DNA of 64,000 nucleotides, from the IMG/VR virus record IMGVR_UViG_3300027724_000010, positions 5,815-69,814 of that record; one strand, given 5' to 3'. Below are positions 19,238 through 54,758 of the stretch, one piece after another (position 1 is the stretch's first letter; each line of letters begins with the position of its first letter). Source of the DNA: a virus. The notes under the pieces were generated by a model that did no database searches, was not told the origin of the DNA, and saw only the letters and a program-made list of their open reading frames with translations. The translations under genes were made by a program, and so were the position numbers.

Positions 19238-20452
19238 TTATTTAAAAATTGAAAGACATCCTAATACAACATCTTTAAATTTTACTTCTGATTTAGCTAA
19301 TGATTTTAAAATAAATAATTTATTATCTTTTTCAAAAACACTACTATTACCTATTTGAATCAATCTACTTTTTAATTCTGGAGTTACTGGAACGTTATTT
19401 TCAATTATTCTATCAATATAGTTAGATAATCGAAATGTAATAACACTTCTTATAACATATTCATTTTTAGATAAAGCAAAAGATTCTTCAATTCTTTTAA
19501 CTACTGTTTCAAATTTAGGTGTACTAATAATCTCTTCTGGTGTTATTATCTTATCAAAATCGTTGTTTATAAACGCTCCAAAACTATGAATAACATCTCC
19601 AAGAACTATTTGTCCTAGTTCGATTATTTTTGGTAAATCGTTTTTAGTATTTGGATATAATAGAGCTACCTGTTTAAAGAAGTTAGTCCATCTACGAATA
19701 GAACAAGCATTTGTATATTTTTTATCACTAGAATAACCAGAAACTACTTCTGGATTCATAAATATAAAATTTACATATTCGTCTGGAATAATTTTTCTAT
19801 CATCAATATATAAACCATCTGCAAAAGCGCACCAAGCTTCTTTGTTCCACTCTATTTCTATTGGAGTGATTCTATCTGCTTGTGCTCCATCGAGCTGTTG
19901 GACGTCATAATTTCCATCGTCTGGATTAGAAGATAAAAATACAGATACACCTTTTGGTAATTTCCAACTACCAAAAGCTTTTTCTTTAATTATCTCCATT
20001 ACTGCGTTTTGAAAAAATCCTAAGTTTCTACTAAAATCGTCTAATACAAGTATATCACCTTCTTTAACTCTAGATACAAAATCAGGTATAGCATCGCTCA
20101 TAACTGGATCGCTGTTACCCATTACCCAACCATTATCTATATAGTTTGGTATTTGTTTTTGAGTAATCCATTTTTTTACAACACCAGTTTCAGTATCTTT
20201 ACATACTTCTATCTTTATCATCGGATAACCTTTTAATTGTCCAATCTCATCGAACTGAGATAATCTAACAATTTCACAATGTATACCCTTTTCTTTTGCA
20301 AAACTTTTTAATATCTCTGTTTTACCAATACCATGCTCTCCAACTAACATTAAAGCAGCATTATCCATTTGCATGTTTAAATCACATGCTAATTTATTAG
20401 TATTATAAAAAATTTCGATATATTTTTTCGCATCAATTAAATTAAATTTCAT
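19238..20452 (-). CDS. AAA+ ATPase (MoxR/CobS-like)
   Basis: Walker A LMLVGEHGIGKTE and Walker B ILVLDDF; ATGA overlap with the downstream vWA gene. Confidence 0.7.
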   Translation of the reverse strand: MKFNLIDAKKYIEIFYNTNKLACDLNMQMDNAALMLVGEHGIGKTEILKSFAKEKGIHCEIVRLSQFDEIGQLKGYPMIKIEVCKDTETGVVKKWITQKQIPNYIDNGWVMGNSDPVMSDAIPDFVSRVKEGDILVLDDFSRNLGFFQNAVMEIIKEKAFGSWKLPKGVSVFLSSNPDDGNYDVQQLDGAQADRITPIEIEWNKEAWCAFADGLYIDDRKIIPDEYVNFIFMNPEVVSGYSSDKKYTNACSIRRWTNFFKQVALLYPNTKNDLPKIIELGQIVLGDVIHSFGAFINNDFDKIITPEEIISTPKFETVVKRIEESFALSKNEYVIRSVITFRLSNYIDRIIENNVPVTPELKSRLIQIGNSSVFEKDNKLFILKSLAKSEVKFKDVVLGCLSIFK

Positions 20453-21699
20453 TTACTATCAATTTTTAATGTTTTAAAATTATTACCCCAAGAACTTCTA
20501 AATGATTCTATAGATATACCATTACTAGTTAAAACCACAATCATTGGTTTTAAAGGTTTAACTTTTGTAAGAGATACATAACCATCAGTTAAATAAACAA
20601 TAGATGCTACATCTTTACATTCTTTGTTAATATACGCTATAGCAGGATCAACTACTGTTCCACCACCACCACTATAACCTTTAGTAGCTAATCTAGATAA
20701 TAATTCCGTAGAATTTTTATATGGATAAATGGAATCTTTAGTTATACTAGCATCACATTCGACAACTAATATATCCATTTTTGATTTTTTACCAATATTA
20801 TCTAACTCACTAAATGCTTCTTCTATATTTTTACCGTTCATAGAACCTGATGTATCTACTATAACTACTATTTTAGGTTTAAATTTTACTTTAAACATGG
20901 TTACATCATCAAAAAATTTAGATGGTTTAGTGTAACTTTTCTTTATTATAATTTTATTAGAAAATAAACCAATAAACGATTTTAACTCGTTTTTCCAATC
21001 AATTTTAGATATATTAGCGTTTAATAAATCAGATATAAACTTTTTTAAGAAACCAGGGATTGATCCCTGATTTCTATTTAAAGCATTAGCTTCTAATAAT
21101 ATTTTATTAACCTGAGCTTCTATTGTTTTATCTAGTACTTCTTGTGATACTTCTGATTTTTCTAACTTTTTCCATAAATCGTGATCTATCATCAATGGTT
21201 GTCCTTTAGAAGAACATTGATTATATAAATCTTTAAATTTAGGATTATTAGATTTTTTTAAAAAGTTATAAATAGCATCAGTACCTTCTTTGACTATATC
21301 TATTGGTACTTTCATATTATCATCATCGTACCAAATACCACCTTCTATAAAATAACTTTTATCTTTAAATATTTCATCTATTACTATATAATTTATATAA
21401 GCATCTGTAGAAATATTAAATAAATTAAAATCATCATAATCTTTGTATACTCGATAATGTTTAAGAATCAAATGATGTAACTCATGTAATAATAAAAATT
21501 GATTTTTTTTATGATTTTTACTATCTATTGATAACCAAAAATCAGGATTTAAATTAATTTCAAAATTTATACCATTCAAAACTAACCCCGCTGTTGTTAA
21601 AGAATTACTAAATCTTATACTAATTAAAGATAAAAAGTAAAAATAAAAATTACTATGTGCTTGTAATTCATAATTTACATCACCTATTTTTGGATTCAT
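20449..21699 (-). CDS. putative metallopeptidase-vWA protein (DUF2201-like layout: HExxH N-terminal domain plus C-terminal von Willebrand A domain)
   Basis: HELHHLILKH (HExxH) in the N-terminal half; VVIVDTSGSMNG (MIDAS DxSxS) in the C-terminal half. Confidence 0.7.
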   Translation of the reverse strand: MNPKIGDVNYELQAHSNFYFYFLSLISIRFSNSLTTAGLVLNGINFEINLNPDFWLSIDSKNHKKNQFLLLHELHHLILKHYRVYKDYDDFNLFNISTDAYINYIVIDEIFKDKSYFIEGGIWYDDDNMKVPIDIVKEGTDAIYNFLKKSNNPKFKDLYNQCSSKGQPLMIDHDLWKKLEKSEVSQEVLDKTIEAQVNKILLEANALNRNQGSIPGFLKKFISDLLNANISKIDWKNELKSFIGLFSNKIIIKKSYTKPSKFFDDVTMFKVKFKPKIVVIVDTSGSMNGKNIEEAFSELDNIGKKSKMDILVVECDASITKDSIYPYKNSTELLSRLATKGYSGGGGTVVDPAIAYINKECKDVASIVYLTDGYVSLTKVKPLKPMIVVLTSNGISIESFRSSWGNNFKTLKIDSK

Positions 21700-21708
21700 T
21701 TTTTAATT

Positions 21709-23424
21709 TTATGACTTTTTAATTACTTTTGCTACTTCTTCTTGAATACTTTTATTTCTTTGATCTCGCATTCTTTGTAACATATCTTCTCGATCTTTCA
21801 ATACTTGCTCATATGTCATATTGCTAAATTTATCAACAACATCATTAAAACCAGTACTACCATCTGATGTTTTTGTATTACCCAACGGATCGGTATTATC
21901 ATCAACTGATTTTTTATAAATACCAGTTGCCGTATCATATTTTATTTTCAATGCTGGTTTAACATTTAATCCATCGTCTATTCTCCTATCCAGAATATCT
22001 TTTACCGGATTAGATTTGGTAGTATTGTAAATCGCATATGAATTAGATACGTTATTTAATATATTCCAAAGCGAATCTTTAGAATCATTATCTTCTGTAA
22101 ATATATTACTATATGGAACAATAACTTTTTTTAATTCATCATCCGCTGCTGACACATTTATTAAAGAATTGTTATTTAAATAATAATGATCATAAAAATA
22201 TTTTTTAACTCGTCTTATATTTTCTAAAGTTATTTCTAATGTTGCTTTATCTTTAATATATGCTGTTAAACAATCTTCTAATTCGATTTTTATCTTCGTA
22301 TTCATTACATTAGAGTAATTATTTATAGCATAATCTATAATTGAAGAGTTTATTAATAACCACATTAAAATATAATCAAAATTATAAGTACTTTGTAAAC
22401 TACGAACTTCAATAGTAGCATGACTAAATGGTTTACATAAATAATTAAGAAAATTAATATTATAATACCTACCTTCTAGATTCCATTTAGATGTACCATT
22501 AATATATTCATTAAGAGATGGTAAAGAATCAATAAAACTTGTTTTAATTCTATTATCAATTCTAAATAATTTATAAATAGATTTAACATCTTTATCAATA
22601 AGTTTTGGTAAATTTTTACAATGATCTCTACCGTTTTTTTGTAATTTATCTGCTAAAAACTTTGTATCTTTTTTATATGGAATTATTAATTGATTTAACT
22701 CATCTGTTAATCTTTGAAATAAAGAATACATAGATAATAACTCTGTTTCTCCTTTAACAATGTTTCCTATATGTATATGTAAACTACAATATTGATCTAT
22801 ATCTGTACATGTTCTAGCAAAGTTCAAAAACTTTCTTAAACTTTCCATATTTTTTATATTCATTATATTAGATACATACTCAGCTCCAGTTATTGAACCA
22901 TCATATAATACAGCAAATCCCATATCATTAGCAATATCTTCTTTTATATAACCTCTACTAGTTTCTAATTCAAAACCATAAGTATATGTTATAAAATCTA
23001 ATACTGATCTTTTATTCTCGTAGTTATTTAATGATCTATTATAATGACTTATATTATATATTTTTTTATCTGGAGAATATTTATTAGTACTTGATATAAA
23101 TCTATCATATTTTGATATATATACATCTTTATTATCGGTAATATTGATCAGTTCATCTTTAAATCTCTTTAAATAAGATGCACAAACTCTATAAGTATGA
23201 TTTCTAAACATCAAAGTAATAGTTTTACTTGAATATTTAGTATTATTATCTATAATATCAGTATAACTAATTAATTTTGATTTATTTTGTATACTATTGG
23301 TATAAGTATCAAATTCTGTATTAACTTTTGGAACATATTTACCATCTAATAATACAGCTGTAACATCTTTAGTATATACTTTATCGTTTATTATTACTTG
23401 ATTTTTTTTTATTTTTTTTTCCAT
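21709..23424 (-). CDS. amidoligase-like protein (GCS2/glutamine-synthetase-like carboxylate-amine ligase, Amidoligase_2-type)
   Basis: YDGSITGAEY…CSLHIHIG motif shared with the paralogue at 28330..29214; sits in an operon with GATase-II, ATP-grasp and GGCT genes. Confidence 0.5.
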   Translation of the reverse strand: MEKKIKKNQVIINDKVYTKDVTAVLLDGKYVPKVNTEFDTYTNSIQNKSKLISYTDIIDNNTKYSSKTITLMFRNHTYRVCASYLKRFKDELINITDNKDVYISKYDRFISSTNKYSPDKKIYNISHYNRSLNNYENKRSVLDFITYTYGFELETSRGYIKEDIANDMGFAVLYDGSITGAEYVSNIMNIKNMESLRKFLNFARTCTDIDQYCSLHIHIGNIVKGETELLSMYSLFQRLTDELNQLIIPYKKDTKFLADKLQKNGRDHCKNLPKLIDKDVKSIYKLFRIDNRIKTSFIDSLPSLNEYINGTSKWNLEGRYYNINFLNYLCKPFSHATIEVRSLQSTYNFDYILMWLLINSSIIDYAINNYSNVMNTKIKIELEDCLTAYIKDKATLEITLENIRRVKKYFYDHYYLNNNSLINVSAADDELKKVIVPYSNIFTEDNDSKDSLWNILNNVSNSYAIYNTTKSNPVKDILDRRIDDGLNVKPALKIKYDTATGIYKKSVDDNTDPLGNTKTSDGSTGFNDVVDKFSNMTYEQVLKDREDMLQRMRDQRNKSIQEEVAKVIKKS

Positions 23425-23425
23425 T

Positions 23426-24865
23426 TTAATATGTTTTTATGGACAACGATTCACCATTTGCAACAAAAGTTGCTGTTGTTGGACCAAATAACGGACGGAT
23501 TGTTACTTGTAAATCATCAAATTTAGTTATATAATCTAAAGTACCGTCTGTTTTTTTATAAACTACAGTATGTAATTGTCTTTCTTTAAAAAACGGTATA
23601 AAATCTATTACTGTATTAAGTAACCTAGGTTGTTCACTATTAAAAAATTTATCTGCAGAATCTGATTTATTATAAAATCTTCCACGAATAGCATTATAAA
23701 TATGTTTATCTTTAACTATAATACCATCCACAAAAAGTATTTTATTAGTATAACTAGATTTTTTACTAAATAAAGCATACATTTCTTTCATAGCTGTATT
23801 AGGATTTAAAACACACTTATATTCTCCTTCAAGTGGTTTTCCAAGATTCATATCAGTATATCTACACTGATGTAAATTAATTCTTGGGTGTGCTACAGGA
23901 GAATCATTAAATGTTTTTCCTTCAGTAATATTTTTAATTATAGCTACATTTGTACTATGATTAACTACACCAGATGTTGCTTTAATTTTTGGCGCAGTAT
24001 AATCCCAACCGAGATAATTATTATTATAATAAGTTGTTTTCTCTTCATGATTTCTAACTATAATTTCAGATTTCTCTAACGCATGATTATGAAATGTTAA
24101 TAACTCATTATTTTGTACTTCTTGTACTTTATATAACCTATCAAAAACAAGATATAACGCATTTTTGATACTACTAAAATACCAACCACTAGGTGTTTCT
24201 ACATAATACAAAGGTCTCTCTTCAGTATCGTTATTAGCACCTTTCCATGCTTTAAAACAATTATTAGTATAATATAATAATGCAGCATATCCTTTGTAAA
24301 ATTTTAAAACATCAGCTTCATCTGCTTTACCAGATAGTGCTCTTCCTAGCGACATTGCTAAGTAATGCGAGTCTATATGTAATTGCTCATCAACATTCTC
24401 TACATCTTTTAAAAATTCTCTTTTAATATCATACATATTTGATAAAGTCCCGTTATGAGCTAAAGAAAAATGATTTAACCCATCCGAAGATTTATATACA
24501 AATGGATGACAATTATTAACATTATAAGTACCAATTGTACCTTTTCTTGTATGAAATATACAAGGTTTATTTAGTAATGGTATCTTTTCGATATTTTCGA
24601 ATTCGCTAGCTATAAAATCTCTAGCTTTTTTTTCTAAATTAGTACCAGTAAATCTAGTATCAGCTATAGATAAACCACAAGAATCGGTACCTCTATCTTC
24701 ATTTATTATACCTAATAAGTATAATTTATTTATATTAACTTTTTTACCCTTCTTCGGATAAAAACCAGCAAGTCCACAAGCTAATATATTTCTATCTGGT
24801 TTCATTAAATATCCCATAAATAGAGATATTAAAAAATAATATATTATAAAATTAATCAACATCAT
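23426..24865 (-). CDS. class-II (Ntn) glutamine amidotransferase-like protein
   Basis: N-terminal …ILACGLAGFY with a candidate nucleophile Cys after a short leader, plus DRGTDSCGLS; 479 aa. Confidence 0.5.
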   Translation of the reverse strand: MMLINFIIYYFLISLFMGYLMKPDRNILACGLAGFYPKKGKKVNINKLYLLGIINEDRGTDSCGLSIADTRFTGTNLEKKARDFIASEFENIEKIPLLNKPCIFHTRKGTIGTYNVNNCHPFVYKSSDGLNHFSLAHNGTLSNMYDIKREFLKDVENVDEQLHIDSHYLAMSLGRALSGKADEADVLKFYKGYAALLYYTNNCFKAWKGANNDTEERPLYYVETPSGWYFSSIKNALYLVFDRLYKVQEVQNNELLTFHNHALEKSEIIVRNHEEKTTYYNNNYLGWDYTAPKIKATSGVVNHSTNVAIIKNITEGKTFNDSPVAHPRINLHQCRYTDMNLGKPLEGEYKCVLNPNTAMKEMYALFSKKSSYTNKILFVDGIIVKDKHIYNAIRGRFYNKSDSADKFFNSEQPRLLNTVIDFIPFFKERQLHTVVYKKTDGTLDYITKFDDLQVTIRPLFGPTTATFVANGESLSIKTY

Positions 24866-25373
24866 TTTTAAAATTTTTTATTACATTTTTTGAAAAAGTT
24901 ATTAACTGCTCTATACTAGCTTCGTTTTTCATTGTATTAGCTAGTAGTGATATAATCCAGACATTTCCAGAAACATATCCTTTAGTATTATCAATTCTAT
25001 CTATAGATGCCCCATTAAGATTTCTACCATTACCATACACATAATCTAATTTTACATTTAATAGTGGACAATGTGTAGGTAAAATTTTAAAATCATCTTC
25101 TGTTATTGAGAATTCTATATTTCTAGTTCTAGCTGTATTTTTAGCAGTTAATAATTTTACTTTTAAATAATTTTCGCTTTTATATTTAAGCTTTTTCTTT
25201 TTATATTTTTCTGAAGAATATAAAGTTTTAATTTTATCTGTTTTTCTATATATTTTATCATATTCATTTTTACATATTTTACAATATTCTGATAAACCAG
25301 AATTTGTATTTTTGTTTTTATGAAATTCCATATTATCTTTTTCTATATTACATTTTTTACATATCTTTTTCAT
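24852..25373 (-). CDS. HNH homing endonuclease (zinc-finger N-terminus, IDRIDN-type HNH core)
   Basis: CKKCN…CKIC Cys pairs and NGASIDRIDNTKGYVSGNVWIISLLANTMK. Confidence 0.7.
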   Translation of the reverse strand: MKKICKKCNIEKDNMEFHKNKNTNSGLSEYCKICKNEYDKIYRKTDKIKTLYSSEKYKKKKLKYKSENYLKVKLLTAKNTARTRNIEFSITEDDFKILPTHCPLLNVKLDYVYGNGRNLNGASIDRIDNTKGYVSGNVWIISLLANTMKNEASIEQLITFSKNVIKNFKNDVD

Positions 25374-25398
25374 TATATTTTATATTCTTCGCTATATA

Positions 25399-27234
25399 TT
25401 ATTTTTTATCAATTAATCTTACAAATTCTTTTAAATAAACCGAAGCAGTAACTTCTGCCATACTTGGTGCAGAGTTAATTTCGATTATAGAAAATTCTGG
25501 AGAACTATTTTTACGTTCGTTTCCATCTTTATTTAAATTGGATTGTACTCTAACATCACAAGCTCCAAAATCTAATCCAACAGATTTGAGAGCTTTTATA
25601 CACTCATTCTGGATATTTTTTAAATTAACAGGAGCATCAAACAAAGGATTTTTCTCACTAATCCAATTACAGTTACTATTGTTAAAGAACCATTTTTGAT
25701 TAGCTGGAGTATCATTTCTCCTAAGCTTTCTCCACATTAAAAATACTCCATTAGTACTTACATGTATTCTATATTCTTTTGCAAAATTTTTAAATTTCTC
25801 AAAGATATAGTTTTCTATATTTCTACCTTTAGACCAACGTAACAACTCTTGTTCACTATCTAACTTATAATTACCTGTTCCACGAGATCCTAATATATGT
25901 TTTGCAACAATAGGATATTCTATATTAGAACCAGCTAAAGCACTAATAACATTGTCTATAGAATTTTGATAAACATACTCTGGTGTAGTTACTTTACCAT
26001 TTATAAAACAACGTTTCATTAGTAACTTAGATGAACTATTAGTTATAGCTTCTTCACTATTTAATACTACATCATACTCTTTAGTTGCTTTTGTTGTAGA
26101 TCCTAATCTTATTAATACTTTTTTAGTACTTTCTAAAACTTTTCTAAATACTCTATGAGATGGATGTCTAGATTTAATCTCAACTTCGTATCTTTTTTTA
26201 GTTTTATCTATATCATCTAAATAAGATTTATAATCAAATGTATATAATCTATCAACTAATTGATTAGTTAAACAATAACTATTATCAGGATTAAAAATAT
26301 AATAGATTTGTCTATCACCACATTGTACTTGATTACCTAATTTAATATAATCTCTAGACCTAGATACTTTATTAAGATATTTTTCTAATTCTACTGGGAA
26401 ATTATAAGCAATATATTGATCCCAAGATCCAGTATTTGGATCTATAGTTATACCTCTAATTTTAAAATCTACAATTTTATATTGTTTAAAAATATCCATT
26501 TTAGGATTATCTTTAGAATTATATAGAATAAAAGAAGTACTACTTTTAGCTATTTCGTTTAACTGTTTCATCGTTGTTAAGGCTTTTTCTATTGTTGTTT
26601 CATATGGTTCTTTAGTTTCACCTAAATATAAACCATATGGACCTGCTGCATTAGAAGCAACTTTATTAAAATGAGCTACTAACTCTTTTACAGTTACTTC
26701 TTTACAAACTACTGGAGGTAAAAAAGTATAAACTGAACTATTTATAGAACACCATGATAATTTTTTAATTCGATCAAACTCTGAATCATTTTTATCACAT
26801 ATATTTAAATAATTAAAGAGTATTTGTTGACCATAATAAAAATGTCTAAACATACAAAACGCATAATATCTATGTCTACTAGAAGTATAATCTCTTAAAT
26901 CTAGTTCAACAATTATAGACTCATTTATAGTAGTATAATTGCTAAGAAATTCGTATTTACCAGTAGCTTTAGATTCAAATATTTTAAATTTAAATCCAAA
27001 ATTTGATATTTCTTCTAAAATTTCTTCAAATGTTTTTTTAGTTTCATCGCACATTATTTTTATATCATCTTTCTTAAGAAATAGATACATATATCGTGAT
27101 GATGCTCCTGTAATAGCACCATTACAACCATTTAATCTATTAATACTACTACCAAGTAATAAATCTATATTCTCTTGTGTAAAAGGAGTACTACGAAATA
27201 TATGTGCAGAAAAATTTGATGTATTATGTCTCAT
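25399..27234 (-). CDS. ATP-grasp ligase (RimK/glutathione-synthetase-like C-terminal domain) with a large N-terminal domain of unknown function
   Basis: C-terminal YPIVAKHILGSRGTGNYKL…EYRIHV…E…N matches the ATP-grasp fold signature. Confidence 0.65.
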   Translation of the reverse strand: MRHNTSNFSAHIFRSTPFTQENIDLLLGSSINRLNGCNGAITGASSRYMYLFLKKDDIKIMCDETKKTFEEILEEISNFGFKFKIFESKATGKYEFLSNYTTINESIIVELDLRDYTSSRHRYYAFCMFRHFYYGQQILFNYLNICDKNDSEFDRIKKLSWCSINSSVYTFLPPVVCKEVTVKELVAHFNKVASNAAGPYGLYLGETKEPYETTIEKALTTMKQLNEIAKSSTSFILYNSKDNPKMDIFKQYKIVDFKIRGITIDPNTGSWDQYIAYNFPVELEKYLNKVSRSRDYIKLGNQVQCGDRQIYYIFNPDNSYCLTNQLVDRLYTFDYKSYLDDIDKTKKRYEVEIKSRHPSHRVFRKVLESTKKVLIRLGSTTKATKEYDVVLNSEEAITNSSSKLLMKRCFINGKVTTPEYVYQNSIDNVISALAGSNIEYPIVAKHILGSRGTGNYKLDSEQELLRWSKGRNIENYIFEKFKNFAKEYRIHVSTNGVFLMWRKLRRNDTPANQKWFFNNSNCNWISEKNPLFDAPVNLKNIQNECIKALKSVGLDFGACDVRVQSNLNKDGNERKNSSPEFSIIEINSAPSMAEVTASVYLKEFVRLIDKK

Positions 27235-27237
27235 TTG

Positions 27238-27615
27238 TTATTTTTTATTAAAATCTCCAGATTTAACAACTCTACCATCATCATTATTAAAGTATAACCA
27301 TGCTTCAATAGTTTTACCATTTAAATTAACAGGTATCAACTCTCTTTTGTACCAACTACCATCATGATTTTCAGGATCATATCCTTCTAATCTATCTACT
27401 CTTGGTAAATCTCTTTCTTGTACTTCCCATACATCTACTACTATTTGTGTATCGGGTGTTTTATTTACAAAAGGTATACCCCTTTCTTTCATTTGATATT
27501 TCTCTACTGTTACTCCAGTACCTTTATGATTATCTCCAGTATCTATTAATCTAGAGTTGGATCCATTTTTACGAAGTGTGCCGTAACATGCTATATATAT
27601 ACTTTCTTTATTCAT
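27238..27615 (-). CDS. gamma-glutamyl cyclotransferase-like (GGCT/AIG2) protein
   Basis: ACYGTLRKNGSN…DRLEGYDPE…Y motifs of the GGCT/AIG2 fold. Confidence 0.7.
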   Translation of the reverse strand: MNKESIYIACYGTLRKNGSNSRLIDTGDNHKGTGVTVEKYQMKERGIPFVNKTPDTQIVVDVWEVQERDLPRVDRLEGYDPENHDGSWYKRELIPVNLNGKTIEAWLYFNNDDGRVVKSGDFNKK

Positions 27616-27757
27616 CTTTTAATTTATTTTTATAAAAATTTTTTACTAAATTTATTATTTCTTCATCACTCCAATCTTGCTTCATCATATTGTACCACCA
27701 ACAAGTTACTAAATATATTTTATATTATGGTACTACTATTATACCATATGTTGATAT

Positions 27758-28333
27758 TTAATATAATTTATTTATTAAATCTTTTATATAAGTTAAATTA
27801 TGTCTGTAAAAACCAGCACTATGCATCCATTCTGGATGAAACTGTACTGTTAATGCTTTTACTTTTGGAAACCACAGTATCTCTGGTTCTATTATACACT
27901 TTATTTCTTCTTTAGCTGTATAATGATGTTCAGTAGCGATACTACTATACCCAAACACTTTAAAATTTTCATCTTCTATAATATTTTTTGTCCACACCAA
28001 TTGATGATGTGCGCTATTTGTTAATATTTCTGTATCAAAAATACCTGTTTCTAGATTTCTTATTTTAATATTGTGCTCACTTGGATGCTTCATGTCTTGT
28101 ATAAGCGTTAATCCATTTAAAGCAGCAATTAATTGATGTCCACGACAAATACCAAAAATAGGTTTACCTTTTTTAACAGCATCGTAATACTGATTTATAT
28201 GTAATCTATCTTGATCAGATGGTTCTGGACCATAAATATTAGATTTATAGTTTTCTTTACCATAAATAGATGGATGGATATCAGCACCACCTGGTAAAAC
28301 TACAAAATCTTCACTTAAAAATCCATATTTCAT
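27758..28333 (-). CDS. class-I glutamine amidotransferase-like gamma-glutamyl hydrolase (PuuD/peptidase C26-like)
   Basis: VLPGGADI…GICRGHQL nucleophile elbow and C-terminal H…E (QFHPE). Confidence 0.7.
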   Translation of the reverse strand: MKYGFLSEDFVVLPGGADIHPSIYGKENYKSNIYGPEPSDQDRLHINQYYDAVKKGKPIFGICRGHQLIAALNGLTLIQDMKHPSEHNIKIRNLETGIFDTEILTNSAHHQLVWTKNIIEDENFKVFGYSSIATEHHYTAKEEIKCIIEPEILWFPKVKALTVQFHPEWMHSAGFYRHNLTYIKDLINKLY

Positions 28334-29214
28334 ACTGTTTCTAATATTATAAAGTCGTTATTTCTAATTAACTTGTTTTTTAACTTTTTACAAGCTTCTC
28401 TACTATATTCTGTATCATCTACTAATTTTAAATTATCGTAGTATTTATCATAATACTCATCCAATAAATTAGCATCTAATACTTTTTTTATCATTTTTAT
28501 ACCGTAATCCACAAACTGTGGATAGTTGTGTATACCAGCCCCTAACACTCTATATTCTATTCTATTAGATGCTTCTTGATCTTTACCTATTATTCTATGA
28601 TCGCTAAGATTTCCATATAACTTTCGTCTATCTACATCTTTATCATAATACATAGATTGAAAACCTAAAAATACATCATTAAGAATCATAAATTTATGTA
28701 ACTCTTCTTTTGTATATTTTTCATCCCAACCATAATGAATATGGTAACCACAACTTCTCAAATTACCTACCATAGCTGGATCTGGTCTAAACGATATATC
28801 ATTCCGATATACACTATAACTTGGTTCACAACCAAAAGTCATAGCTTGTTCGTTATCTAACTCCATCATATTATATCTAGCACTAGATACTATATCTAAA
28901 CTATACATTGGATCAATTTCTGCTAACCATTTATTAGTATATTCAATACAATCGTCAATTATAGATTTATACATCCAATACTCTTTCATTGGTGGTAATG
29001 TAAACTCTATCATTACATTATCTAATTGTTGAAAACATCCTTCTAAAGCTATAGGTTTAGGATCTTTTTTTGTACCTTCTACTATATTTATTAGAGATTG
29101 ATATTCATTTATACCCTTTATTATACACGGAAATTCAGGATCTCCCCCTATCAAAAAATTTGATTTCATTTTACTAGTTATTTTTATAATAAATATCTTT
29201 ATTACCCCATTCAA
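28330..29214 (-). CDS. amidoligase-like protein, paralogue of 21709..23424
   Basis: SCGYHIHYG motif equivalent to the HIHIG motif of the paralogue. Confidence 0.45.
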   Translation of the reverse strand: MNGVIKIFIIKITSKMKSNFLIGGDPEFPCIIKGINEYQSLINIVEGTKKDPKPIALEGCFQQLDNVMIEFTLPPMKEYWMYKSIIDDCIEYTNKWLAEIDPMYSLDIVSSARYNMMELDNEQAMTFGCEPSYSVYRNDISFRPDPAMVGNLRSCGYHIHYGWDEKYTKEELHKFMILNDVFLGFQSMYYDKDVDRRKLYGNLSDHRIIGKDQEASNRIEYRVLGAGIHNYPQFVDYGIKMIKKVLDANLLDEYYDKYYDNLKLVDDTEYSREACKKLKNKLIRNNDFIILETV

Positions 29215-29692
29215 TTGGAGTTTTGTTATTTTTTATGAGTATTTTATTTATATTTATAAACACATCACTACCCACAAATACTTTTTTACCAGAATATTGA
29301 TCACTCATTGGGTGAACAACTTCTAAAATATTTCCACTAACTATATTTGTTTTAAACTTTTGAGCATCTCTACCCATCAATAACCAAATAATATCTGGTC
29401 TTTTTTTACTTAAACTTGTTATTAGATGCTCAGTAAATGGTTTCCATATTTTACTATGAGAACCAGATAAACCTTGCTCAACAGTTAAAGAAGCGTTTAA
29501 TAATAAAACACCTTGCTCGCACCAATTAAACAATGATTTAGCTTGATAAACAGGATTACCATATATTGGAAACCCTGTTCTTTTTAATTCTTCAAATATT
29601 ATTTTTAAACTAGGATTTATATATCCATTTTCTGTAGCAAATGCTACTCCACACGCTGATGGTACACACTTGTATAATCCAGGATAAGGCAT
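29174..29692 (-). CDS. uracil-DNA glycosylase, exon 2 (family 1 UDG C-terminal two thirds)
   Basis: GVLLLNASLTV…GSHSKIWKPFTEHLI…IIWLLMGRDAQK…HPMS is colinear with family-1 UDG from the GQDPY motif onward. Confidence 0.85.
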   Translation of the reverse strand: MPYPGLYKCVPSACGVAFATENGYINPSLKIIFEELKRTGFPIYGNPVYQAKSLFNWCEQGVLLLNASLTVEQGLSGSHSKIWKPFTEHLITSLSKKRPDIIWLLMGRDAQKFKTNIVSGNILEVVHPMSDQYSGKKVFVGSDVFININKILIKNNKTPIEWGNKDIYYKNN

Positions 29693-30763
29693 TTTGTTAT
29701 CACTAAGACTCTTTATTCTTAGTTTCTGTACTTTTATTTTCGAGTTATAGGTACAGTTCAGACTATATCTTCTACTTTTCAGTAGTGCTGATTTCGTGGA
29801 TATATTATATTCTATAAATTATTATTTATAGTTTCAATATCTAGTCGTTAGGCATTTACTAATATATTATTATTAGATTTAGCAAGGGATTGTCCACTTC
29901 TGGATATTCCCCTTTTAACAGCATTTATACAGAACCCTCATGTAATTTATATATCATTGAAGGAATAATATAAGGTTTAATTATATTAGTAAAATTTATA
30001 ACAGATTTTAGTTTTATATAAATAGAATTATAATAGGAATGATAACTTGCTTCTATATTAAATTTATCTTTTAATAATTTTATTAAAAATAAAACTTCTT
30101 CTTTTGAGAATGAGCAAGTATATATCATATATCCATGTGTAGCTTTACTACCATCATCCATAAACCAAATTGCTAACCCAAAAGAATCAATTTTAGTTAT
30201 AAAATCTTTATTGATAATTTTAATATTATCTTTATAAAAAAAATTTCTATATTTACTAAATATAGGATTAGATTTACTTTTGAAAGTATAATTTTGATTT
30301 AATTTATTTTTAAATCTATTATCTATATTTTCGTAATATCTAAATTTTCCTGCTAATTTAAAATCATTTAAAAAATTATGTTTATATTGACAATACTCTT
30401 TTTGTTTTACACCATGTGCGAAAACCATGCTGGATTGTTTTGCTAATCCTGATATTTTAGATAGGTACCCATCACCTAATAATGAACCAATTATAAATTG
30501 ATCCAAAATATCCGAATCTATACTTAGATATCTATTCGATTTTAAACTATAACGATTTAAATCTGAAATGACCTTTTTTACAGGTATTTTCAGCAAATCA
30601 GCAATTTCTATATTAGTTAATTTATTAGAATATAATTCTAATATATTTTCTGTTAATTTACTTTTTTTTCGTATTTTCATTGTGAATTATTTTTCACAAA
30701 TATACTAAATTAATCCTAATATCCCAACTTTATTATATTAATAAATTGTTAAATATTTTAAAA
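29690..30763 (-). mobile_element. group I intron interrupting the UDG gene after the GQD codons; carries a LAGLIDADG endonuclease ORF
   Basis: UDG ORF breaks at GQD|PYPG; minus-sense R-like CCTAACGACTAGAT (~29843) and S-like GATATAGTCTGAAC (~29748); the last intron base is G (omega-G) immediately before the CCT codon. Confidence 0.65.
29925..30680 (-). CDS. LAGLIDADG homing endonuclease (double-motif)
   Basis: FIIGSLLGDGYLSK and LAIWFMDDGSK motifs ~100 aa apart. Confidence 0.8.
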   Translation of the reverse strand: MKIRKKSKLTENILELYSNKLTNIEIADLLKIPVKKVISDLNRYSLKSNRYLSIDSDILDQFIIGSLLGDGYLSKISGLAKQSSMVFAHGVKQKEYCQYKHNFLNDFKLAGKFRYYENIDNRFKNKLNQNYTFKSKSNPIFSKYRNFFYKDNIKIINKDFITKIDSFGLAIWFMDDGSKATHGYMIYTCSFSKEEVLFLIKLLKDKFNIEASYHSYYNSIYIKLKSVINFTNIIKPYIIPSMIYKLHEGSV

Positions 30764-31009
30764 ATCCTGTCCCAATATAACAACTTTCGTATTATCATAC
30801 TCGCACTCACTAAATGCTCTAAATACTTGATTTTTTTCAGGATATACGATTGTATTTTCATATAATACATCTAAATTATTTAACAATTCGTCTAATCTAG
30901 AATCTAATCCTGTTTCTTTTACAAAATTATTCCACGTTTTAAACTCCGGAACCATTTTTATAATTTTTAGAACCATTTGTAGCTTTAAAAAATCCAACAC
31001 CAAATTCAA
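30758..31009 (-). CDS. uracil-DNA glycosylase, exon 1
   Basis: …VYPEKNQVFRAF…KVVILGQD matches the UDG N-terminal segment up to the water-activating GQDPY loop. Confidence 0.8.
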   Translation of the reverse strand: MNLVLDFLKLQMVLKIIKMVPEFKTWNNFVKETGLDSRLDELLNNLDVLYENTIVYPEKNQVFRAFSECEYDNTKVVILGQDF

Positions 31010-31090
31010 ATAAAATCACACATAATAAATACCACCAGCTTGGTTGTATATCGTCTGGTAACATTAGTTGAACTAGTATAAACGTTTCTG

Positions 31091-31420
31091 TCATATACCT
31101 AATAAATTTTTAATTAAATTAGAAGAATAATTATCATATAATTCTTCCGAATGGTACTGAACGGCAGCTATTGGTAAAGTTTCATGTCGAAATGCTTCAA
31201 TAAGTAAACCACCATCTTCAGTAGAGTCTTCAGAAAACAATAAAGGTTCTAAATCTTTACCTAAATTCAATAAACAAACAGCTTGATGATGATGAGAATT
31301 TACTTTAAATTCTTTAGTATGTTTTTTTACAGTATATGGTGTATCAATACCAGAATAAACGTCGTGAGCTGTAGCCCATCTACTAGATGATTGTGGATGA
31401 TATATTAAATTTTGAGTCAA
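31091..31420 (-). CDS. class-I GATase-like gamma-glutamyl hydrolase, exon 2
   Basis: …SHHHQAV…LPIAAVQYHSEE corresponds to the catalytic His/Glu region of class-I amidotransferases. Confidence 0.65.
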   Translation of the reverse strand: MTQNLIYHPQSSSRWATAHDVYSGIDTPYTVKKHTKEFKVNSHHHQAVCLLNLGKDLEPLLFSEDSTEDGGLLIEAFRHETLPIAAVQYHSEELYDNYSSNLIKNLLGI

Positions 31421-31423
31421 CTT

Positions 31424-32410
31424 AGATCCAAAATATACTGCTAATTGTTGTCAATTTGTTATCTTACAAGTTCTTTATCTTGTAATTCTTATAGTTTCCT
31501 ATAAGTTCAGACTATATCATATTCTTTATAATTTATTTACTTTTTATAACTATTATTAATATTTTTTATTATATTTGCACTTATGAATAAAAATGAACAA
31601 ATAGTAAAATCGCTTCATAAAGAAGGATTAAACGATAGTCAAATTAATGCTATAAGTGGTATATATAGAAGTACTGTTGGTAAAATACGTAAAAAATTAG
31701 ATTTAGAATCTAATGGTTCTAAATATGTACCATTATACAGTAAACTTAAAGAACTCTATTTGGATAATCTAACGGATTCTGAAATAGCTAAAAAATTAGA
31801 TATATCAGATAAAGCTGTATTCTATATTAGAAAACAATTAGATTTAAAAACCAAATTTAAAGTTAAAAAATATTATAACTCTATTGATAAAAGAAAAGGT
31901 TACTGGTTACGTAATATTCGTAATTCAGCAATGCAAAGAAATTTAGATTATAACTTACAAATAGAAGATTTTGATTTACCAGAATTTTGTCCACTACTTG
32001 GGACAAAATTAAATTATAATGGTAAACCAAATGATCCTTATAACGCTAGTATAGATCGTATAGATAATACTAAAGGTTATATTAAAGGTAATGTTATAGT
32101 TATATCTAGAAAAGCTAACCAAATGAAAAATTCTGGTACACTTGACGAATTATTAACTTTTGCTTCTAATATCAATATTCTTGTAAATTATTATAAAGAT
32201 CAAGGCGCTCTTGGAGATATTACCGACGTATTTCCAAACATAGTATTATGTAAAGAAATTTAGTCTCGATCTCTAGTCGTTGAACTTTTAAAGTTATTTC
32301 TAACTAAACTTAGCTGCTGATTGACATATACAATATATATTGTACTTAGTGTTCCAGCAATTCACCTCATTTTTAACCATAAATCACTTTATGGTGGGTC
32401 CCAACATTAG
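31424..32410 (-). mobile_element. group I intron in the class-I GATase gene, carrying an antisense HNH endonuclease ORF in its P8 region
   Basis: host ORF breaks right after GICLGF; minus-sense R AAAGTTCAACGACTAG (~32280) and S GATATAGTCTGAAC (~31503); plausible U/G splice sites giving …GICLGF|TQNLIYHPQ…. Confidence 0.6.
31583..32263 (+). CDS. HNH homing endonuclease (IDRIDN-type) with an N-terminal helix-turn-helix-like region
   Basis: PLLGTKLNYNGKPNDPYNASIDRIDNTKGYIKGNVIVISRKANQMKN; encoded opposite to the surrounding genes and the intron. Confidence 0.75.
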   Translation: MNKNEQIVKSLHKEGLNDSQINAISGIYRSTVGKIRKKLDLESNGSKYVPLYSKLKELYLDNLTDSEIAKKLDISDKAVFYIRKQLDLKTKFKVKKYYNSIDKRKGYWLRNIRNSAMQRNLDYNLQIEDFDLPEFCPLLGTKLNYNGKPNDPYNASIDRIDNTKGYIKGNVIVISRKANQMKNSGTLDELLTFASNINILVNYYKDQGALGDITDVFPNIVLCKEI

Positions 32411-32721
32411 TTAAACCCTAAACATATACCGAATATAGGAGTTTTAGAATCAATATACGCTTTCAATCTATTATTCATAAAGAAATCTTTATAAACATCT
32501 GTATTAGAAGTATAAAATCCTGGTACTTCACCATAATTTGCTGGATTAACATCTAATCCACCTGGTAATAGTATCATATCTACATCTACTTTTTCTTCCC
32601 ACGGTAATATAATACGTGGATTACCAAAATTACTAATAAACTCTAAATATGTTTTATTAGCACCAAAACTGTTATCACCCATAGATGATCCTGGAATACC
32701 TATTACTTTTTTTTTACTCAT
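32407..32721 (-). CDS. class-I GATase-like gamma-glutamyl hydrolase, exon 1
   Basis: ILLPGGLDV…PIFGICLGF nucleophile-elbow region; the ORF stops immediately after it. Confidence 0.65.
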   Translation of the reverse strand: MSKKKVIGIPGSSMGDNSFGANKTYLEFISNFGNPRIILPWEEKVDVDMILLPGGLDVNPANYGEVPGFYTSNTDVYKDFFMNNRLKAYIDSKTPIFGICLGFN

Positions 32722-33116
32722 TATTTTGTTATTTTATTTATCCACATCTTTATAGTATTACCACTAGATGGATTTATAAAAGTTTTTACTAACAACCAGT
32801 TATTATTCTTTTCTAATACTTTCTCAAGAAATACACAAGTACCATAACCATTTGTATTTATAATTAAATCATTATGACGTTTTGCTATTTCTGTAAATAA
32901 TTCTGATATAGCATCTATATGATCACTACTAAAATCACTATATCCAGTCATTCTAAAATTACCTATTTCGGATGCACCGCAACAATAAGGTAAGTCACTT
33001 ATTAACATATCTATAGTAGATAAACCATTATTATAACTTATTATTAATTGATCATATTTAAATAAACTATCTATCCAACTTTTTAAATCTTTAATTTTAT
33101 ATTTGTTTTCCATCAA
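32721..33116 (-). CDS. hypothetical protein
   Basis: 131-aa ORF; TGATG overlap with the GATase exon. Confidence 0.5.
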   Translation of the reverse strand: MMENKYKIKDLKSWIDSLFKYDQLIISYNNGLSTIDMLISDLPYCCGASEIGNFRMTGYSDFSSDHIDAISELFTEIAKRHNDLIINTNGYGTCVFLEKVLEKNNNWLLVKTFINPSSGNTIKMWINKITK

Positions 33117-33181
33117 CCACCTAAACTATCGTTAATAATATCTCCATTATCATCAAATGGATTTGTTAATTGTTTCATCTT

Positions 33182-54411: not shown

Positions 54412-54517
54412 TAAAGCAGATGGGACTCGAACCCACGACCACGGCTTTATCAGTGCTGTTAAATTATTATAAGTAGATATTCTACTATACGTGCTCTACC
54501 AGCTGAGCTACTGCTTT
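54412..54517 (-). tRNA. tRNA-like gene with a ~35-nt insertion between the D-arm and anticodon arm; anticodon-loop-like CUGAUAA (Ile GAU-like); non-canonical
   Basis: acceptor AAAGCAG/CTGCTTT, D-arm GCTC-AGCTGGTA-GAGC and T-arm GTGGG-TTCGAGT-CCCAT are all canonical; the middle is 56 nt instead of ~22 and the anticodon stem is weak. Confidence 0.35.
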
Positions 54518-54606: not shown

Positions 54607-54649
54607 AGTTATTATAAGTGTATTATTTGTATCTTTGTCAGATGCGAGG
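54607..54649 (-). promoter_or_regulatory. sigma70-like promoter, copy 1 of a conserved 43-nt element
   Basis: minus-sense CCTCGCATCTGACAAAGATACAAATAATACACTTATAATAACT has a -35-like CTGACA, ~18-nt spacer and -10 TATAAT; 42/43 identical to 55721-55763. Confidence 0.5.
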
Positions 54650-54758
54650 GGAGTACAGGATTCGAACCTGTGTTACGAGCACCCAAAGCTATTTTAAAGT
54701 ATTATAAGTACGTAAACATACTGTATATACGCGTCCTAAACCACTAGACGAACTCCCC
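54646..54758 (-). tRNA. tRNA-like gene with a ~39-nt insertion between the D-arm and anticodon arm; anticodon-loop-like UUUGGGU (Pro UGG-like); non-canonical
   Basis: acceptor GGGGAGT/ACTCCCC, D-arm GTCT-AGTGGTTTA-GGAC and T-arm ACAGG-TTCGAAT-CCTGT are canonical; the insert is related to that of the 54412 element (CGTATA…TACTTATAATAMTTTAA). Confidence 0.35.

Follow-up and report, generated by a model that had tools for sequence, protein, structure and literature searches.

The locus lies in a window of 64,000 nucleotides of viral DNA (IMG/VR record IMGVR_UViG_3300027724_000010, positions 5,815 to 69,814). It comprises a class-I glutamine amidotransferase (GATase) gene on the minus strand, a group I intron that splits this gene and, within the intron, an endonuclease gene on the plus strand. 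A megablast search of INPHARED phages gave no match to this phage, which thus has no close sequenced relative in that collection. The features of the locus are the following, in the direction of the host gene:

32414..32721, minus strand: GATase exon 1, delimited by its ORF, by Pfam matches and by the alignment to the intron-less relative L001, which stops exactly at 32414
31452..32413, minus strand: group I intron, 962 nt, missing to the base from the 98%-identical L001
32396..32418, minus strand: P1, exon GGGUU/U (32418..32413; slash, splice site) with the internal guide UUGGGACCC (32404..32396), from the MFE fold
32376..32395, minus strand: P2 hairpin, ACCAUAAA-GUGA-UUUAUGGU, from the MFE fold
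32285..32369, minus strand: P3 5' strand, P4, P5 and P6, Rfam model positions 53-141 (P3 5' strand 32369..32363; P4 32360..32354 with 32320..32314; P5 hairpin 32351..32323; P6 32313..32285)
32274..32280, minus strand: P7 5' strand, A[C]GACUA with a bulged nucleotide, part of the R element
32214..32273, minus strand: P7.1/P7.2-type extension, 60 nt between P7 and P3'
32201..32207, minus strand: P3 3' strand, CGCCUUG, whose complement codes for Gln-Gly of the conserved QGALG in the endonuclease tail
32183..32200, minus strand: P8 5' strand, pairing with 31540..31521, its complement coding for LVNYYKD of the endonuclease
31583..32263, plus strand: endonuclease gene, 226 aa, antisense to the intron, between R and S
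31570..31577, plus strand: TATATTTG, matching TAnnTTTG, the -7 promoter element of Bacteroidota; the endonuclease ATG follows 5 nt downstream
31521..31540, minus strand: P8 3' strand, forming with 32183..32200 an inverted repeat of about 18 bp around the endonuclease cassette
31452..31520, minus strand: J8/7 and P7 3' strand (AUGAUAUAGUCU, S element), P9 (31505..31488), P9.1 (31485..31464) and 3' tail GAUAACAAAUUG; Rfam model positions 221-251
31091..31451, minus strand: GATase exon 2, stop codon included, its spliced translation giving the junction of P0001

The two halves of the GATase gene had been recognized on either side of the intron by an earlier, sequence-only reading, and both of the corresponding minus-strand ORFs (32407..32721, ending in GICLGFN and a stop, and 31091..31420) do match Peptidase_C26/GATase in Pfam. 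Exon 1 begins with an ATG at 32721 and ends in GGT ATA TGT TTA GGG TT (G I C L G plus two nucleotides), the intron begins with UAACUAAUG and ends with AAAUUG, with the omega-G at 31452, and exon 2 opens with A CAA CAA TTA GCA, which completes a Leu codon and continues with QQLAVYFGSKLTQNL. The U/G splice sites of that reading are recovered, as a U precedes the 5' site and a G is the last intron nucleotide. In a blastn comparison with the intron-less L001 the alignment breaks at 32414/31451, with about 50 nt identical on either flank. The predicted ligated exon junction is GGGTT/ACAACAA (in context, TGTTTAGGGTT/ACAACAATTAGC) and the site in the intron-less allele is GGTATATGTTTAGGGTTACAACAATTAGC (L001, about positions 730-790). 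Excision yields GICLG-L-QQLAVYFGSK, the same sequence as in P0001 and other uninterrupted homologues, and the spliced protein gives a single continuous Peptidase_C26 match (84.6 bits). Sequence comparison thereby confirms that the intron is real and that it splits a class-I GATase gene at the DNA for the nucleophile-elbow motif G-x-C-x-G, since exact excision restores the ORF of the intron-less relative, in agreement with the earlier proposal. The limits initially given (31424-32410) did locate the intron, but lay from a few bases to 30 nt away from its true span (32413..31452), and the exon 2 start placed at 31420 was wrong: exon 2 starts at 31451, and ten codons (QQLAVYFGSK) had been missed.

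The minus-sense R (AAAGTTCAACGACTAG) and S (GATATAGTCTGAAC) elements, already noticed in the sequence-only reading, each fall within a partial match to the Rfam Intron_gpI model (RF00028). The first match spans 32366..32204 on the minus strand (model 53-154, 39.4 bits, E = 3e-8) and the second 31520..31490, also on the minus strand (model 221-251, 20.1 bits, E = 0.02). They are collinear and on the strand of the host gene. Both come from an E-value scan of a small region; the gathering score of RF00028 is 50 bits, and each piece remains below it because the 681-nt ORF splits the model. A scan of the whole window at the gathering threshold retrieved tRNAs only and no Intron_gpI. E-value scans of larger regions of the relatives L008, L010 and L012-L014 did not retrieve Intron_gpI either, and the homology of their introns to that of the window was established from nhmmer profiles. 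The locally elevated GC content reported earlier exists but is modest (0.33 in the core match vs 0.258 in the window).

The P1-P9 folding that had been proposed as a check results in a group I fold with strong covariation among 15 homologous introns. Pairing over P3-P9, P3/P7 pseudoknot included, amounts to 88.8% and falls to 38-43% when the partners are slid, and 44 pairs are compensatory; the covariation score is 0.44, compared with at most 0.117 for slid partners. None of 500 shuffles equalled the observed values on four of five measures, and 5/500 did so on the fifth, further pair types. Compensatory changes occur in P3, P4 and P6; P3 is 100% paired, with two compensatory columns, and P7, whose 5' strand pairs with UAGUCU at 31514..31509, is also 100% paired, its outer pair covarying between A-U (10/15 introns) and G-C (5/15). 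The P7.1/P7.2-type extension has three helices (8-10), namely a 5-bp outer one (GAGAU/AUCUC), one of GAC/GUC and that of a terminal hairpin, all 98-100% paired with compensatory changes. Pairing reaches 93% in P9.1 (seven compensatory columns) and 71.5% in P8 (ten compensatory columns), the latter in an imperfect MAFFT alignment. At the 5' end, GGGUU/U pairs with GGGACCC in P1, with a U.G wobble at the splice site, and a P10 can be read from the sequence as possible between GUUG of the guide and the CAAC that opens exon 2. An extra P7.1/P7.2 element between P7 and P3' marks the IA2 subgroup, to which the td and Twort introns belong. The architecture found here appears IA2-like on the basis of its P7.1/P7.2-type insert. 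Without the P8 insert the intron would be 324 nt long. Taken together, the matches and the fold support the presence of a group I ribozyme core, and self-splicing is predicted.

The 226-aa ORF at 31583..32263 lies on the plus strand between R and S, as first described. Its assignment to the P8 position holds for the body of the ORF, which is in the P8 loop, but not for its 3' 81 nt (32183..32263, the last 27 codons), which run on the opposite strand through P8-5', P3' and the P7.1/P7.2-type extension. This overlap is constrained on both strands. The dN/dS of the gene (0.05-0.15) shows purifying selection, the position of the stop codon within the ribozyme is constant wherever it was read, and 21 of 25 aligned proteins have the conserved C-terminal tail. 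The identical protein is found in the same context on 10 independent contigs (JGI, ENA, Logan). These observations support the antisense ORF being a real gene.

An antisense gene would need its own promoter, as the sequence-only reading pointed out, and the promoter-like TAnnTTTG element lies just upstream of this one. Its position at 31570..31577, given the consensus and spacing described in Bacteroidota (PMC6847099), predicts a transcription start near 31582 and therefore an almost leaderless endonuclease mRNA. The motif is found ahead of the ATG in the window. Among the other antisense loci, 18 were examined by means of an automatically extracted ORF, in some cases a truncated one, and 11 of these have the motif as well. 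Its distance to the ATG is 5 nt in the window, compared with 28-39 nt in L008, L012, L092, L093 and L094. Upstream of genes in the window the motif occurs at 12 of 94 ORFs (4.6 +/- 2.0 expected), while over the whole 26%-GC window its excess is only marginal (132 vs 112 +/- 11). SD-like cores precede only 2 of 76 ORFs, a scarcity expected in Bacteroidota (PMC6847099). A sigma-70 promoter scan was uninformative (13 promoter-like sites vs 21.8 expected), and a scan for intrinsic terminators found none, including for the antisense transcript. We infer from the upstream element that the endonuclease gene has its own promoter, and the sequence signals suggest a host of the phage among the Bacteroidota, probably one living in wastewater or sludge.

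The protein is made up of two N-terminal HTH units followed by a C-terminal His-Me finger domain devoid of the catalytic His (SIDRIDNTKGYIKGNVIVISRKANQMKN). It displays the beta-beta-alpha-metal fold, and its AF2 models have a pLDDT of 92. The label HNH given to it at first is right as to the His-Me finger fold, but a Pfam scan of the protein returned no HNH-family match and there is no conserved His. Among 120 family members no position carries an invariant His and the zinc cysteines are absent; the invariant residues are C136, D158, R159, G165, Y166, N170, N179 and K182, and where the first beta strand ends, in place of the catalytic His, there is an invariant Arg (D158-R159). Since this Arg replaces the His and no Pfam HNH match exists, the models indicate that the endonuclease is a His-less His-Me finger, nearest in fold to PacI, and not a canonical HNH enzyme. 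PacI (PDB 3m7k, His-Me group 20 of PMC5714182) also lacks the catalytic His and uses a Tyr instead (PMC5714182, PMC4081073); in both, a Tyr occupies the loop that joins the beta strands, Asp and Asn are available as metal ligands and an HTH-like DNA-binding module lies upstream. From their positions in the motif, D158 and N179 are the likely metal ligands and Tyr166 the likely counterpart of the PacI Tyr. Catalysis would then probably proceed through Tyr166, with Asp158 and Asn179. The two proteins are nevertheless only 14% identical, without a sequence-level match, and searches of PDB sequences with two profiles returned HTH and designed-repeat matches only, none for the nuclease domain. They also differ in that PacI is a homodimeric restriction enzyme with two Cys4 zinc sites, while the gene studied here is intron-borne and its family has a single invariant Cys. 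The PHROG family 'endonuclease VII' matches the protein (2.5e-13), and the phage His-Me finger enzymes of the F-CphI/DHHRN (Endo VII-motif) group are likewise tied to group I introns and have a similar motif layout, C..D-x-x-D..G-N..x-x-x-N (PMC6083498). The DHHRN motif reads CX2-4C ... DHDH ... R ... CX2C-N (PMC6083498), whereas the endonuclease reads C-P ... DRID ... KGN ... SxxAN. DHDH and CX2C-N are thus replaced by DRID and SxxAN, the His and zinc ligands that define the family are absent, and membership in this group was rejected.

The antisense layout is shared by 31 loci, corresponding to 27 distinct sequences, all fetched through the endonuclease family. Their proteins are 35-51% identical, and in L008 and L010, for instance, the endonuclease homologues are also antisense to homologous introns. 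In a neighbour-joining tree without bootstrap, 26 of the 27 distinct sequences form one pure clade adjoining sense-oriented intron endonucleases, these sister proteins being encoded in related introns. At 70 of 178 loci, part of a related group I intron is located no more than 2 kb from the family member; the wider family counts 39 sense and 31 antisense loci, and in the 23 sense loci with both intron parts detected the ORF is located between them. Fifteen of the 17 distinct 5' junctions printed are at the site coding for G-x-C-x-G (L012 and L109 differ), and the same intron type has a further copy at a look-alike site, within a DUF932 gene. When a DNA pattern of the core was used to look for copies devoid of the ORF, all five matches were antisense copies containing it, but the pattern spans the region of the ORF stop codon, so that ORF-less copies may exist elsewhere. 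Judging from these sequences, the antisense arrangement is a conserved feature of the whole intron clade rather than a singular oddity.

In several respects the intron resembles the IA2 introns of phages, such as that of T4 td with I-TevI and the DNA-polymerase introns of T7-like phages and cyanophages with I-PfoP3I (PMC3428280). All of them are group I introns in protein-coding genes, inserted at the DNA for a conserved catalytic motif, with an endonuclease ORF in a peripheral loop whose 3' end reaches core helices, and their presence varies among related phages. The ORF of I-PfoP3I and its ribosome-binding site are nevertheless within the intron RNA (PMC3428280) and the homing-endonuclease genes of T4 are all co-oriented with their neighbours, except for the free-standing segD (PMC2988022), whereas the ORF studied here occupies the opposite strand, behind a promoter-like element of its own. 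Its overlap with the core is therefore antisense. In a 2014 review on group I introns of bacteria, neither antisense nor opposite orientation comes up and, in the reviews searched, the endonuclease genes of the bacterial and phage examples are co-oriented with the ribozyme or their orientation is undiscussed. Our literature search, incomplete in its coverage, retrieved no bacterial or phage group I intron whose endonuclease gene is described as antisense; the only earlier reports of this layout in the literature searched concern slime moulds and fungi, in introns of their nuclear rDNA. The nuclear rDNA introns with the antisense His-Cys box genes I-DirII (Didymium S956-2) and I-DsqI (Diderma L2066) (PMC3073962, PMC9548176) also have an endonuclease gene opposite the ribozyme strand and inside a peripheral helix, with sense and antisense versions in one intron family and the same worry over antisense interference with the precursor RNA. 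Those genes are expressed from an internal promoter, as would be the case here from the putative element. However, I-DirII and I-DsqI are eukaryotic, reside in rRNA genes with IE/IC1 cores and rely on a Pol II promoter, polyadenylation and spliceosomal introns (PMC9548176), while the window has a phage protein-coding gene, an IA2-like core, a PacI-like His-Me finger and a bacterial-type promoter element. Moreover, their sense and antisense RNAs are parted between nucleolus and nucleoplasm, whereas no compartment would keep the two RNAs apart here. Membership in this type was rejected, as enzyme family, host gene and domain of life differ and only the antisense layout is common.

The near-identical phages represented by the window and L001 differ by the presence or absence of the intron and, together with an intron-borne gene and a conserved host site, this polymorphism provides the context of a homing endonuclease. 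The intron is probably mobile. We favor, with a probability of about 0.85, the reading that the locus is a mobile IA2-like intron in a GATase gene with an antisense homing-endonuclease cassette in its P8 loop. The minus-strand pre-mRNA would fold into a P1-P9.1 ribozyme with a P3/P7 pseudoknot, and splicing at U32414 and G31452 would produce an intact 222-aa GATase. The terminal loop of P8 would constitute a complete cassette pointing in reverse, with a Bacteroidota-type promoter element and the gene for a 226-aa site-specific endonuclease. Transcription of this gene, from the plus strand, would thus not depend on the host gene, and ribosomes making the enzyme would never read the intron RNA. 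Upon mixed infection, GATase alleles devoid of the intron would be cleaved by the enzyme at the conserved motif, and repair would then copy the intron and its endonuclease gene into the cut allele. A single origin of the antisense layout is most likely, its ancestor being a P8 endonuclease gene that had the sense orientation in the same intron family; as a conjectural route, the arms of the long P8 stem could have mediated an inversion.

Other scenarios may be considered. A free-standing endonuclease gene could have been inserted without any intron, leaving the GATase split into two independent or dead ORFs, and the two separate GATase ORFs called on each contig with the identical endonuclease, as well as the failure of Rfam to report an intron at its gathering threshold, are what such an insertion would produce. 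Yet a group I core lies on the strand of the host gene, 44 compensatory pairs back the full P1-P9.1 fold, joining the exons at the U and G sites gives back exactly the reading frame of the intron-less relative, and both exon halves are intact in diverged relatives, which makes this scenario very improbable. We grant even less credit to the idea that the gene owes its orientation to a recent accident, for example one inversion or an error of assembly, which would be neutral and of no biological consequence. Orientation alone does set the gene apart from ordinary intron endonuclease genes, and sense is commoner in the wider family, but the arrangement recurs on the 10 independent contigs and in about 27 distinct sequences with diverged proteins, with a constant stop position, a conserved tail, a recurrent promoter-like motif upstream and a dN/dS far below 1.

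The intron could also be real but its ORF something other than a homing endonuclease, namely a dead His-Me finger with HTHs, kept as a DNA-binding regulator, as an anti-sigma-like ('Srd'-type) factor or for another phage function, the intron being immobile or mobilised in trans. The loss of the invariant His and of the zinc cysteines and the lack of a Pfam HNH match are compatible with this scenario, as are the names of some PHROG relatives ('Srd anti-sigma factor', 'decoy of host sigma70') and the existence of two other His-Me groups that have neither the His nor an equivalent Tyr and are regarded as inactive (PMC5714182). Nevertheless, the family keeps an invariant Tyr in the loop between the beta strands and invariant Asp and Asn, as in the active PacI. 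In addition, its association with related introns, the presence or absence of the intron in near-identical phages and its spread to a look-alike site of an unrelated gene are behaviours typical of homing endonucleases. A dead enzyme consequently seems improbable, although less so than the two preceding scenarios, and the mobile intron with an antisense homing endonuclease remains the preferred reading.

The partnership between group I introns and endonucleases is a textbook case of a selfish element adapted to life within a gene. A conserved, monophyletic antisense clade in phages implies that it also works in a cell without compartments, even though both RNAs are complementary over the catalytic core. 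A more ambitious reading joins three claims: that this is the first prokaryotic or viral group I lineage with a stably antisense homing-endonuclease gene, that the inversion was adaptive and that the P8 stem flipped the cassette. We regard this combination as tentative and, taken as a whole, doubtful. If it were true, the inversion would clear ribosomes from the intron RNA and end the conflict between translation and folding, a conflict that T4 meets by delaying the translation of I-TevI. Splicing and endonuclease would be coupled by convergent transcription and by the 81-nt dual-strand overlap, and the 3' end of the endonuclease mRNA, being complementary to P8/P3'/P7.1-7.2, could set the timing of splicing or throttle it. 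For the flip of the cassette, the recombination substrate would have been the long stem of P8 (18-bp inverted repeat). The system opens to test the tolerance of splicing to antisense transcription, the benefit of uncoupling endonuclease translation from ribozyme folding and the evolution of 81 nt under protein and RNA-structure constraints on opposite strands. It also defines a large family of His-less, PacI-like His-Me finger enzymes; their target, the stretch coding for the G-x-C-x-G elbow of the GATase, is long and conserved and could appeal to nuclease engineers. For annotators of intron-rich phages, apparently those of Bacteroidota, a lone 'HNH' gene on the opposite strand amid two gene fragments can mark an intron.

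With 25.8% GC the window is AT-rich, and the minus strand carries 94 of its 99 ORFs of at least 60 aa. One of just five plus-strand ORFs in the whole window, encoding a 226-aa endonuclease, is found between the two halves of a minus-strand class-I glutamine amidotransferase (GATase) gene, each of which has Pfam Peptidase_C26 and class-I GATase matches:

32407..32721, minus: GATase N-terminal ORF, ending GICLGFN*
31583..32263, plus: endonuclease ORF, 226 aa
31091..31420, minus: GATase C-terminal-half ORF

A search with a provisional spliced protein retrieved an uninterrupted 222-aa GATase homologue, P0001 (93% identity to the spliced model by BLASTP, 98% over the MAFFT alignment), which reads GICLG-L-QQLAVYFGSK-LTQNL at the junction. 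Exon 2 as given in the sequence-only reading was 10 residues short; the missing residues are coded immediately upstream. P0001 is encoded on L001, a 37.9-kb contig from a close relative of the window phage, with which the window shares three collinear blastn blocks:

window 33170..32414, L001 1..757
window 31451..30774, L001 758..1435
window 29662..28500, L001 1473..2635

Since the blocks break at 32414 and 31451, the first insert relative to L001 is exactly 32413..31452 (962 nt). The flanking exons are identical to L001 for about 50 nt on each side. Exon 1 ends in ..GGGTT and the intron in ..AAATTG, and the joined exons read GGG TTA CAA CAA (G L Q Q). After splicing, the 222-aa product has a single Peptidase_C26 match that is continuous over residues 22-205 (84.6 bits), plus a single GATase match (55.8 bits). 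Identity to L001 is asymmetric, 93.7% over 32414..33170 (exon 1 and the preceding gene) versus 98.2% over 30774..31451, a possible sign that recombination or co-conversion had its boundary at the intron.

The R and S group I elements that had been read by eye are indeed on the minus strand. The Rfam check had a mixed outcome: at the gathering threshold Intron_gpI has no match in the window, where tRNAs alone are reported, while an E-value scan of 31200..32600 recovers two collinear pieces:

32366..32204, minus: Intron_gpI, 39.4 bits, E 3e-8, model 53-154 (P3 to P3')
31520..31490, minus: Intron_gpI, 20.1 bits, E 0.02, model 221-251 (J8/7, P7', P9)

In P1, the exon GGGUU|U pairs with the guide GGGACCC, and the splice site falls at a U.G wobble; next comes a P2 hairpin capped by a GUGA loop. 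The intron measures 324 nt once the P8 insert is left out. Homologous introns were gathered via the endonuclease protein, and nhmmer profiles of the two intron parts, 5' and 3', gave their positions; the joined parts of 15 distinct introns were then aligned and evaluated against a hand-written structure, with P7 entered as a pseudoknot. Standard pairs fill 88.8% of the cells, versus 38-43% after the partners are shifted by 1-3 columns; shifting also lowers the covariation score from 0.44 to 0.117 or less. Two-sided changes are seen at 44 pairs. None of 500 shuffles matches the observed values on four of five measures, and 5 of 500 do so for further pair types. Pairing is 100% in P3 and P7, and in 5 of the 15 introns the outer P7 pair changes from A-U to G-C across a bulged nucleotide; compensatory changes are abundant in P4, P6 and P9.1. 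A three-helix extension of 60 nt between P7 and P3' is 98-100% paired, again with compensatory changes; we take such an extension to mark subgroup IA2, from the td and Twort introns. Covariation across these 15 introns supports a group I fold on the minus strand. One relative (L094:1680-2002, minus) carries an extra, GC-richer P5-loop insertion of about 95 nt (..AAGACACACTGTCTGTGGGAGTTCCCGCAGATTTAG..) that is found in no other intron of the antisense clade.

The body of the endonuclease ORF occupies the P8 loop. Its 3' 81 nt (32183..32263, 27 codons) are antisense to the P8 5' strand, P3' and the P7.1/P7.2-type extension, and the ORF ends in a stop codon complementary to CUA in GAGACUAAA, at a distance of 10 nt from P7. 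The same protein (P0121) is present in the same context on 10 contigs (JGI, ENA, Logan). Two homologues with 42-44% identity, P0125 and P0130, encoded on contigs of 132 and 116 kb respectively, lie inside homologous introns, each as the sole plus-strand gene within a minus-strand gene run. Among 178 plus-strand loci of the family, a related intron is on the opposite strand in 31, on the same strand in 39 and absent within 2 kb in 108; a core DNA pattern has five further matches, all antisense. In a neighbour-joining tree of the nuclease domain (no bootstrap), 26 of 27 distinct antisense sequences form a single pure clade, the 27th falls just outside, and the closest branches are endonucleases from related introns in the sense orientation. 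The chief finding added here is thus that the antisense layout is conserved across a clade, apparently monophyletic and nested among sense-oriented relatives. In the sense group the ORF is likewise between P3' and P7', so both orientations are P8-loop insertions; in 21 of 23 measured loci the sense ORF runs at its 3' end into the 3' part of the intron, by 15-88 nt (mostly 60-80). One hypothesis is that the antisense layout arose through an inversion between the 18-bp P8 arms. Some loci (L026, L029, L053, L092) hold two intron-family copies within a few kb, with 5' parts at 2440 and 5506 in L026 and a second intron at 3..275 in L092, so phages of this kind carry more than one member of the family.

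Several signs suggest that the antisense ORF is a functional gene. The C-terminal YKNQGALGxITDxFPNIxLK is kept in 21 of 25 aligned antisense-group proteins, the other four diverging or ending early. The stop codon has an identical ribozyme position in the window, L008 and L010, and the string bearing it, GAGACTAA, is found in most other introns. Pairs of endonucleases at 85-94% identity have dN/dS of 0.05-0.15. Compensatory RNA changes in P3 and the extension coincide with codon changes in the tail, some of them synonymous and some non-synonymous: where CAG GGC becomes CAT GGC or CAC GGC (Q-G to H-G), the P3 5' strand has changed to match. A regulatory use of the overlap can be hypothesized.

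The initial claim of a GATase-splitting intron with an antisense endonuclease is essentially right, given the L001 insert, the supported fold and the plus-strand ORF; the present analysis adds the exact splice sites, the covariation-supported fold and the 81-nt dual-strand overlap. Antisense endonuclease genes have been described in nuclear rDNA group I introns, for I-DirII and I-DsqI (PMC3073962, PMC9548176). These are His-Cys box enzymes expressed by Pol II, and the two RNAs are kept apart by the nucleolus. The words antisense, opposite and orientation are absent from a 2014 review of bacterial group I introns, a T4 review notes opposite orientation for the free-standing segD alone, and no phage or bacterial antisense example was found in the literature searched, whose coverage is incomplete, so that priority is not certain.

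A sigma-70 promoter scan was uninformative. Shine-Dalgarno (SD) sequences are hardly ever used by this phage. The Bacteroidota -7 element TAHHTTTG, whose G lies at -5 from the transcription start (PMC6847099), is found in the 60 nt preceding 12 of the 94 minus-strand ORFs, versus 4.6 +/- 2.0 under random placement; in the window this enrichment sits 14-55 nt upstream of start codons. The element is likewise present ahead of the endonuclease ATG, both in the window and at 11 of 18 other antisense loci with a script-taken ORF, and several of the loci without it have truncated ORFs. At L008, L012, L092, L093 and L094, 28-39 nt separate a promoter-like GTATATTTG from the ATG downstream of it, and AAAACAA (AAAACAC in L094) shortly precedes the start codon. 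The window has:

31570..31577, plus: promoter-like TATATTTG, 5 nt upstream of the endonuclease ATG

The leader thus looks as if deleted relative to those five loci (5 nt versus 28-39 nt). An internal promoter for the endonuclease gene is likely and, since TATATTTG is 5 nt from the ATG, the mRNA would start near 31582 and be almost leaderless. The low GC content, an SD-like core in 2 of 76 ORFs, the TAHHTTTG enrichment, the lack of an INPHARED DNA match to the window phage, and a crAss-like phage, cr116_1, as the best phage-database match to the endonuclease (41% identity) all point to a probable Bacteroidota host.

The GATase nucleophile-elbow DNA (..TGY MGW GGG T|T..) is the site of 15 of the 17 distinct antisense 5' junctions listed. 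The L109 junction differs. In L012 (2791-3826, minus), judged by eye, the intron appears displaced upstream by about 9 nt, following ..TTCGGGAT (G-I) instead of G-x-C-x-G, with a guide altered to match and about 20 extra nt at the 3' end, which suggests a shifted homing site inside the same motif. In L010 the intron is hosted by a gene for a DUF932 protein, at a site (GGTCTGTGCAGTGGGT|T) similar to that in the GATase gene; the spliced product matches DUF932 across the junction. The common elbow site, this look-alike and the presence versus absence of the intron between the near-identical window phage and L001 point to endonuclease-driven homing with occasional ectopic transposition.

Pfam finds only HTH motifs in the 226-aa protein, while PHROGs places it in an 'endonuclease' family (1e-27), with weaker matches named Srd, endonuclease VII and HNH. 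AlphaFold models of the full-length protein and of residues 95-226 (pLDDT 92) have two HTH units, a long helix and a beta-beta-alpha core. Across 120 family members C136, D158, R159, G165, Y166, N170, N179 and K182 are invariant and no His is. Among known His-Me fingers, PacI has no catalytic His and relies instead on a Tyr in the inter-strand loop (PMC5714182, PMC4081073). Because the family likewise has an invariant Tyr and no invariant His, we infer a His-less, PacI-like mechanism, in which Tyr166 would be the base or nucleophile and Asp158 and Asn179 metal ligands. Membership of DHHRN/F-CphI was rejected, DHDH being replaced by DRID and CX2C by SxxAN.

A second split gene, of the UDG superfamily, lies directly downstream, with an interruption of about 1.1 kb (29663..30773, minus):

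30758..31009, minus: UDG N-part, ending ..VVILGQDF
29925..30680, minus: LAGLIDADG_2 ORF, co-oriented with the split gene
29174..29692, minus: UDG C-part, UDG superfamily

The L001 counterpart is uninterrupted (235 aa). The insert has a weak Intron_gpI match (29976..29749, 27.9 bits, E 8e-5), where the nhmmer 3'-part profile also matches, and probably represents another group I intron, whose endonuclease is sense-oriented and belongs to a different family. TATATTTG also lies 17 nt upstream of the LAGLIDADG ATG. The GATase host gene and the UDG-like gene belong to a cluster at 19238..33116 (minus) conserved in L001, which also includes:

27758..28333, minus: second Peptidase_C26/GATase gene
27238..27615, minus: GGACT-domain gene
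23426..24865, minus: class-II GATase-like gene
19238..21699, minus: AAA_5 ATPase and DUF2201 VWA/metallopeptidase pair

The cluster may be a module for nucleotide or DNA modification, or for gamma-glutamyl metabolism. Elsewhere, two Rfam tRNA matches, neither of which is called by ARAGORN, carry anticodon-arm insertions that both contain CTTATAATA:

54412..54517, minus: tRNA match, 45.9 bits, 46-nt insertion
54647..54758, minus: tRNA match, 40.4 bits, 52-nt insertion

Between the two, near 54575, is a third T-arm-like sequence (GGTTCAAGTCCTAT). Both matches may be tRNA genes that contain introns or are unusual in some other way.
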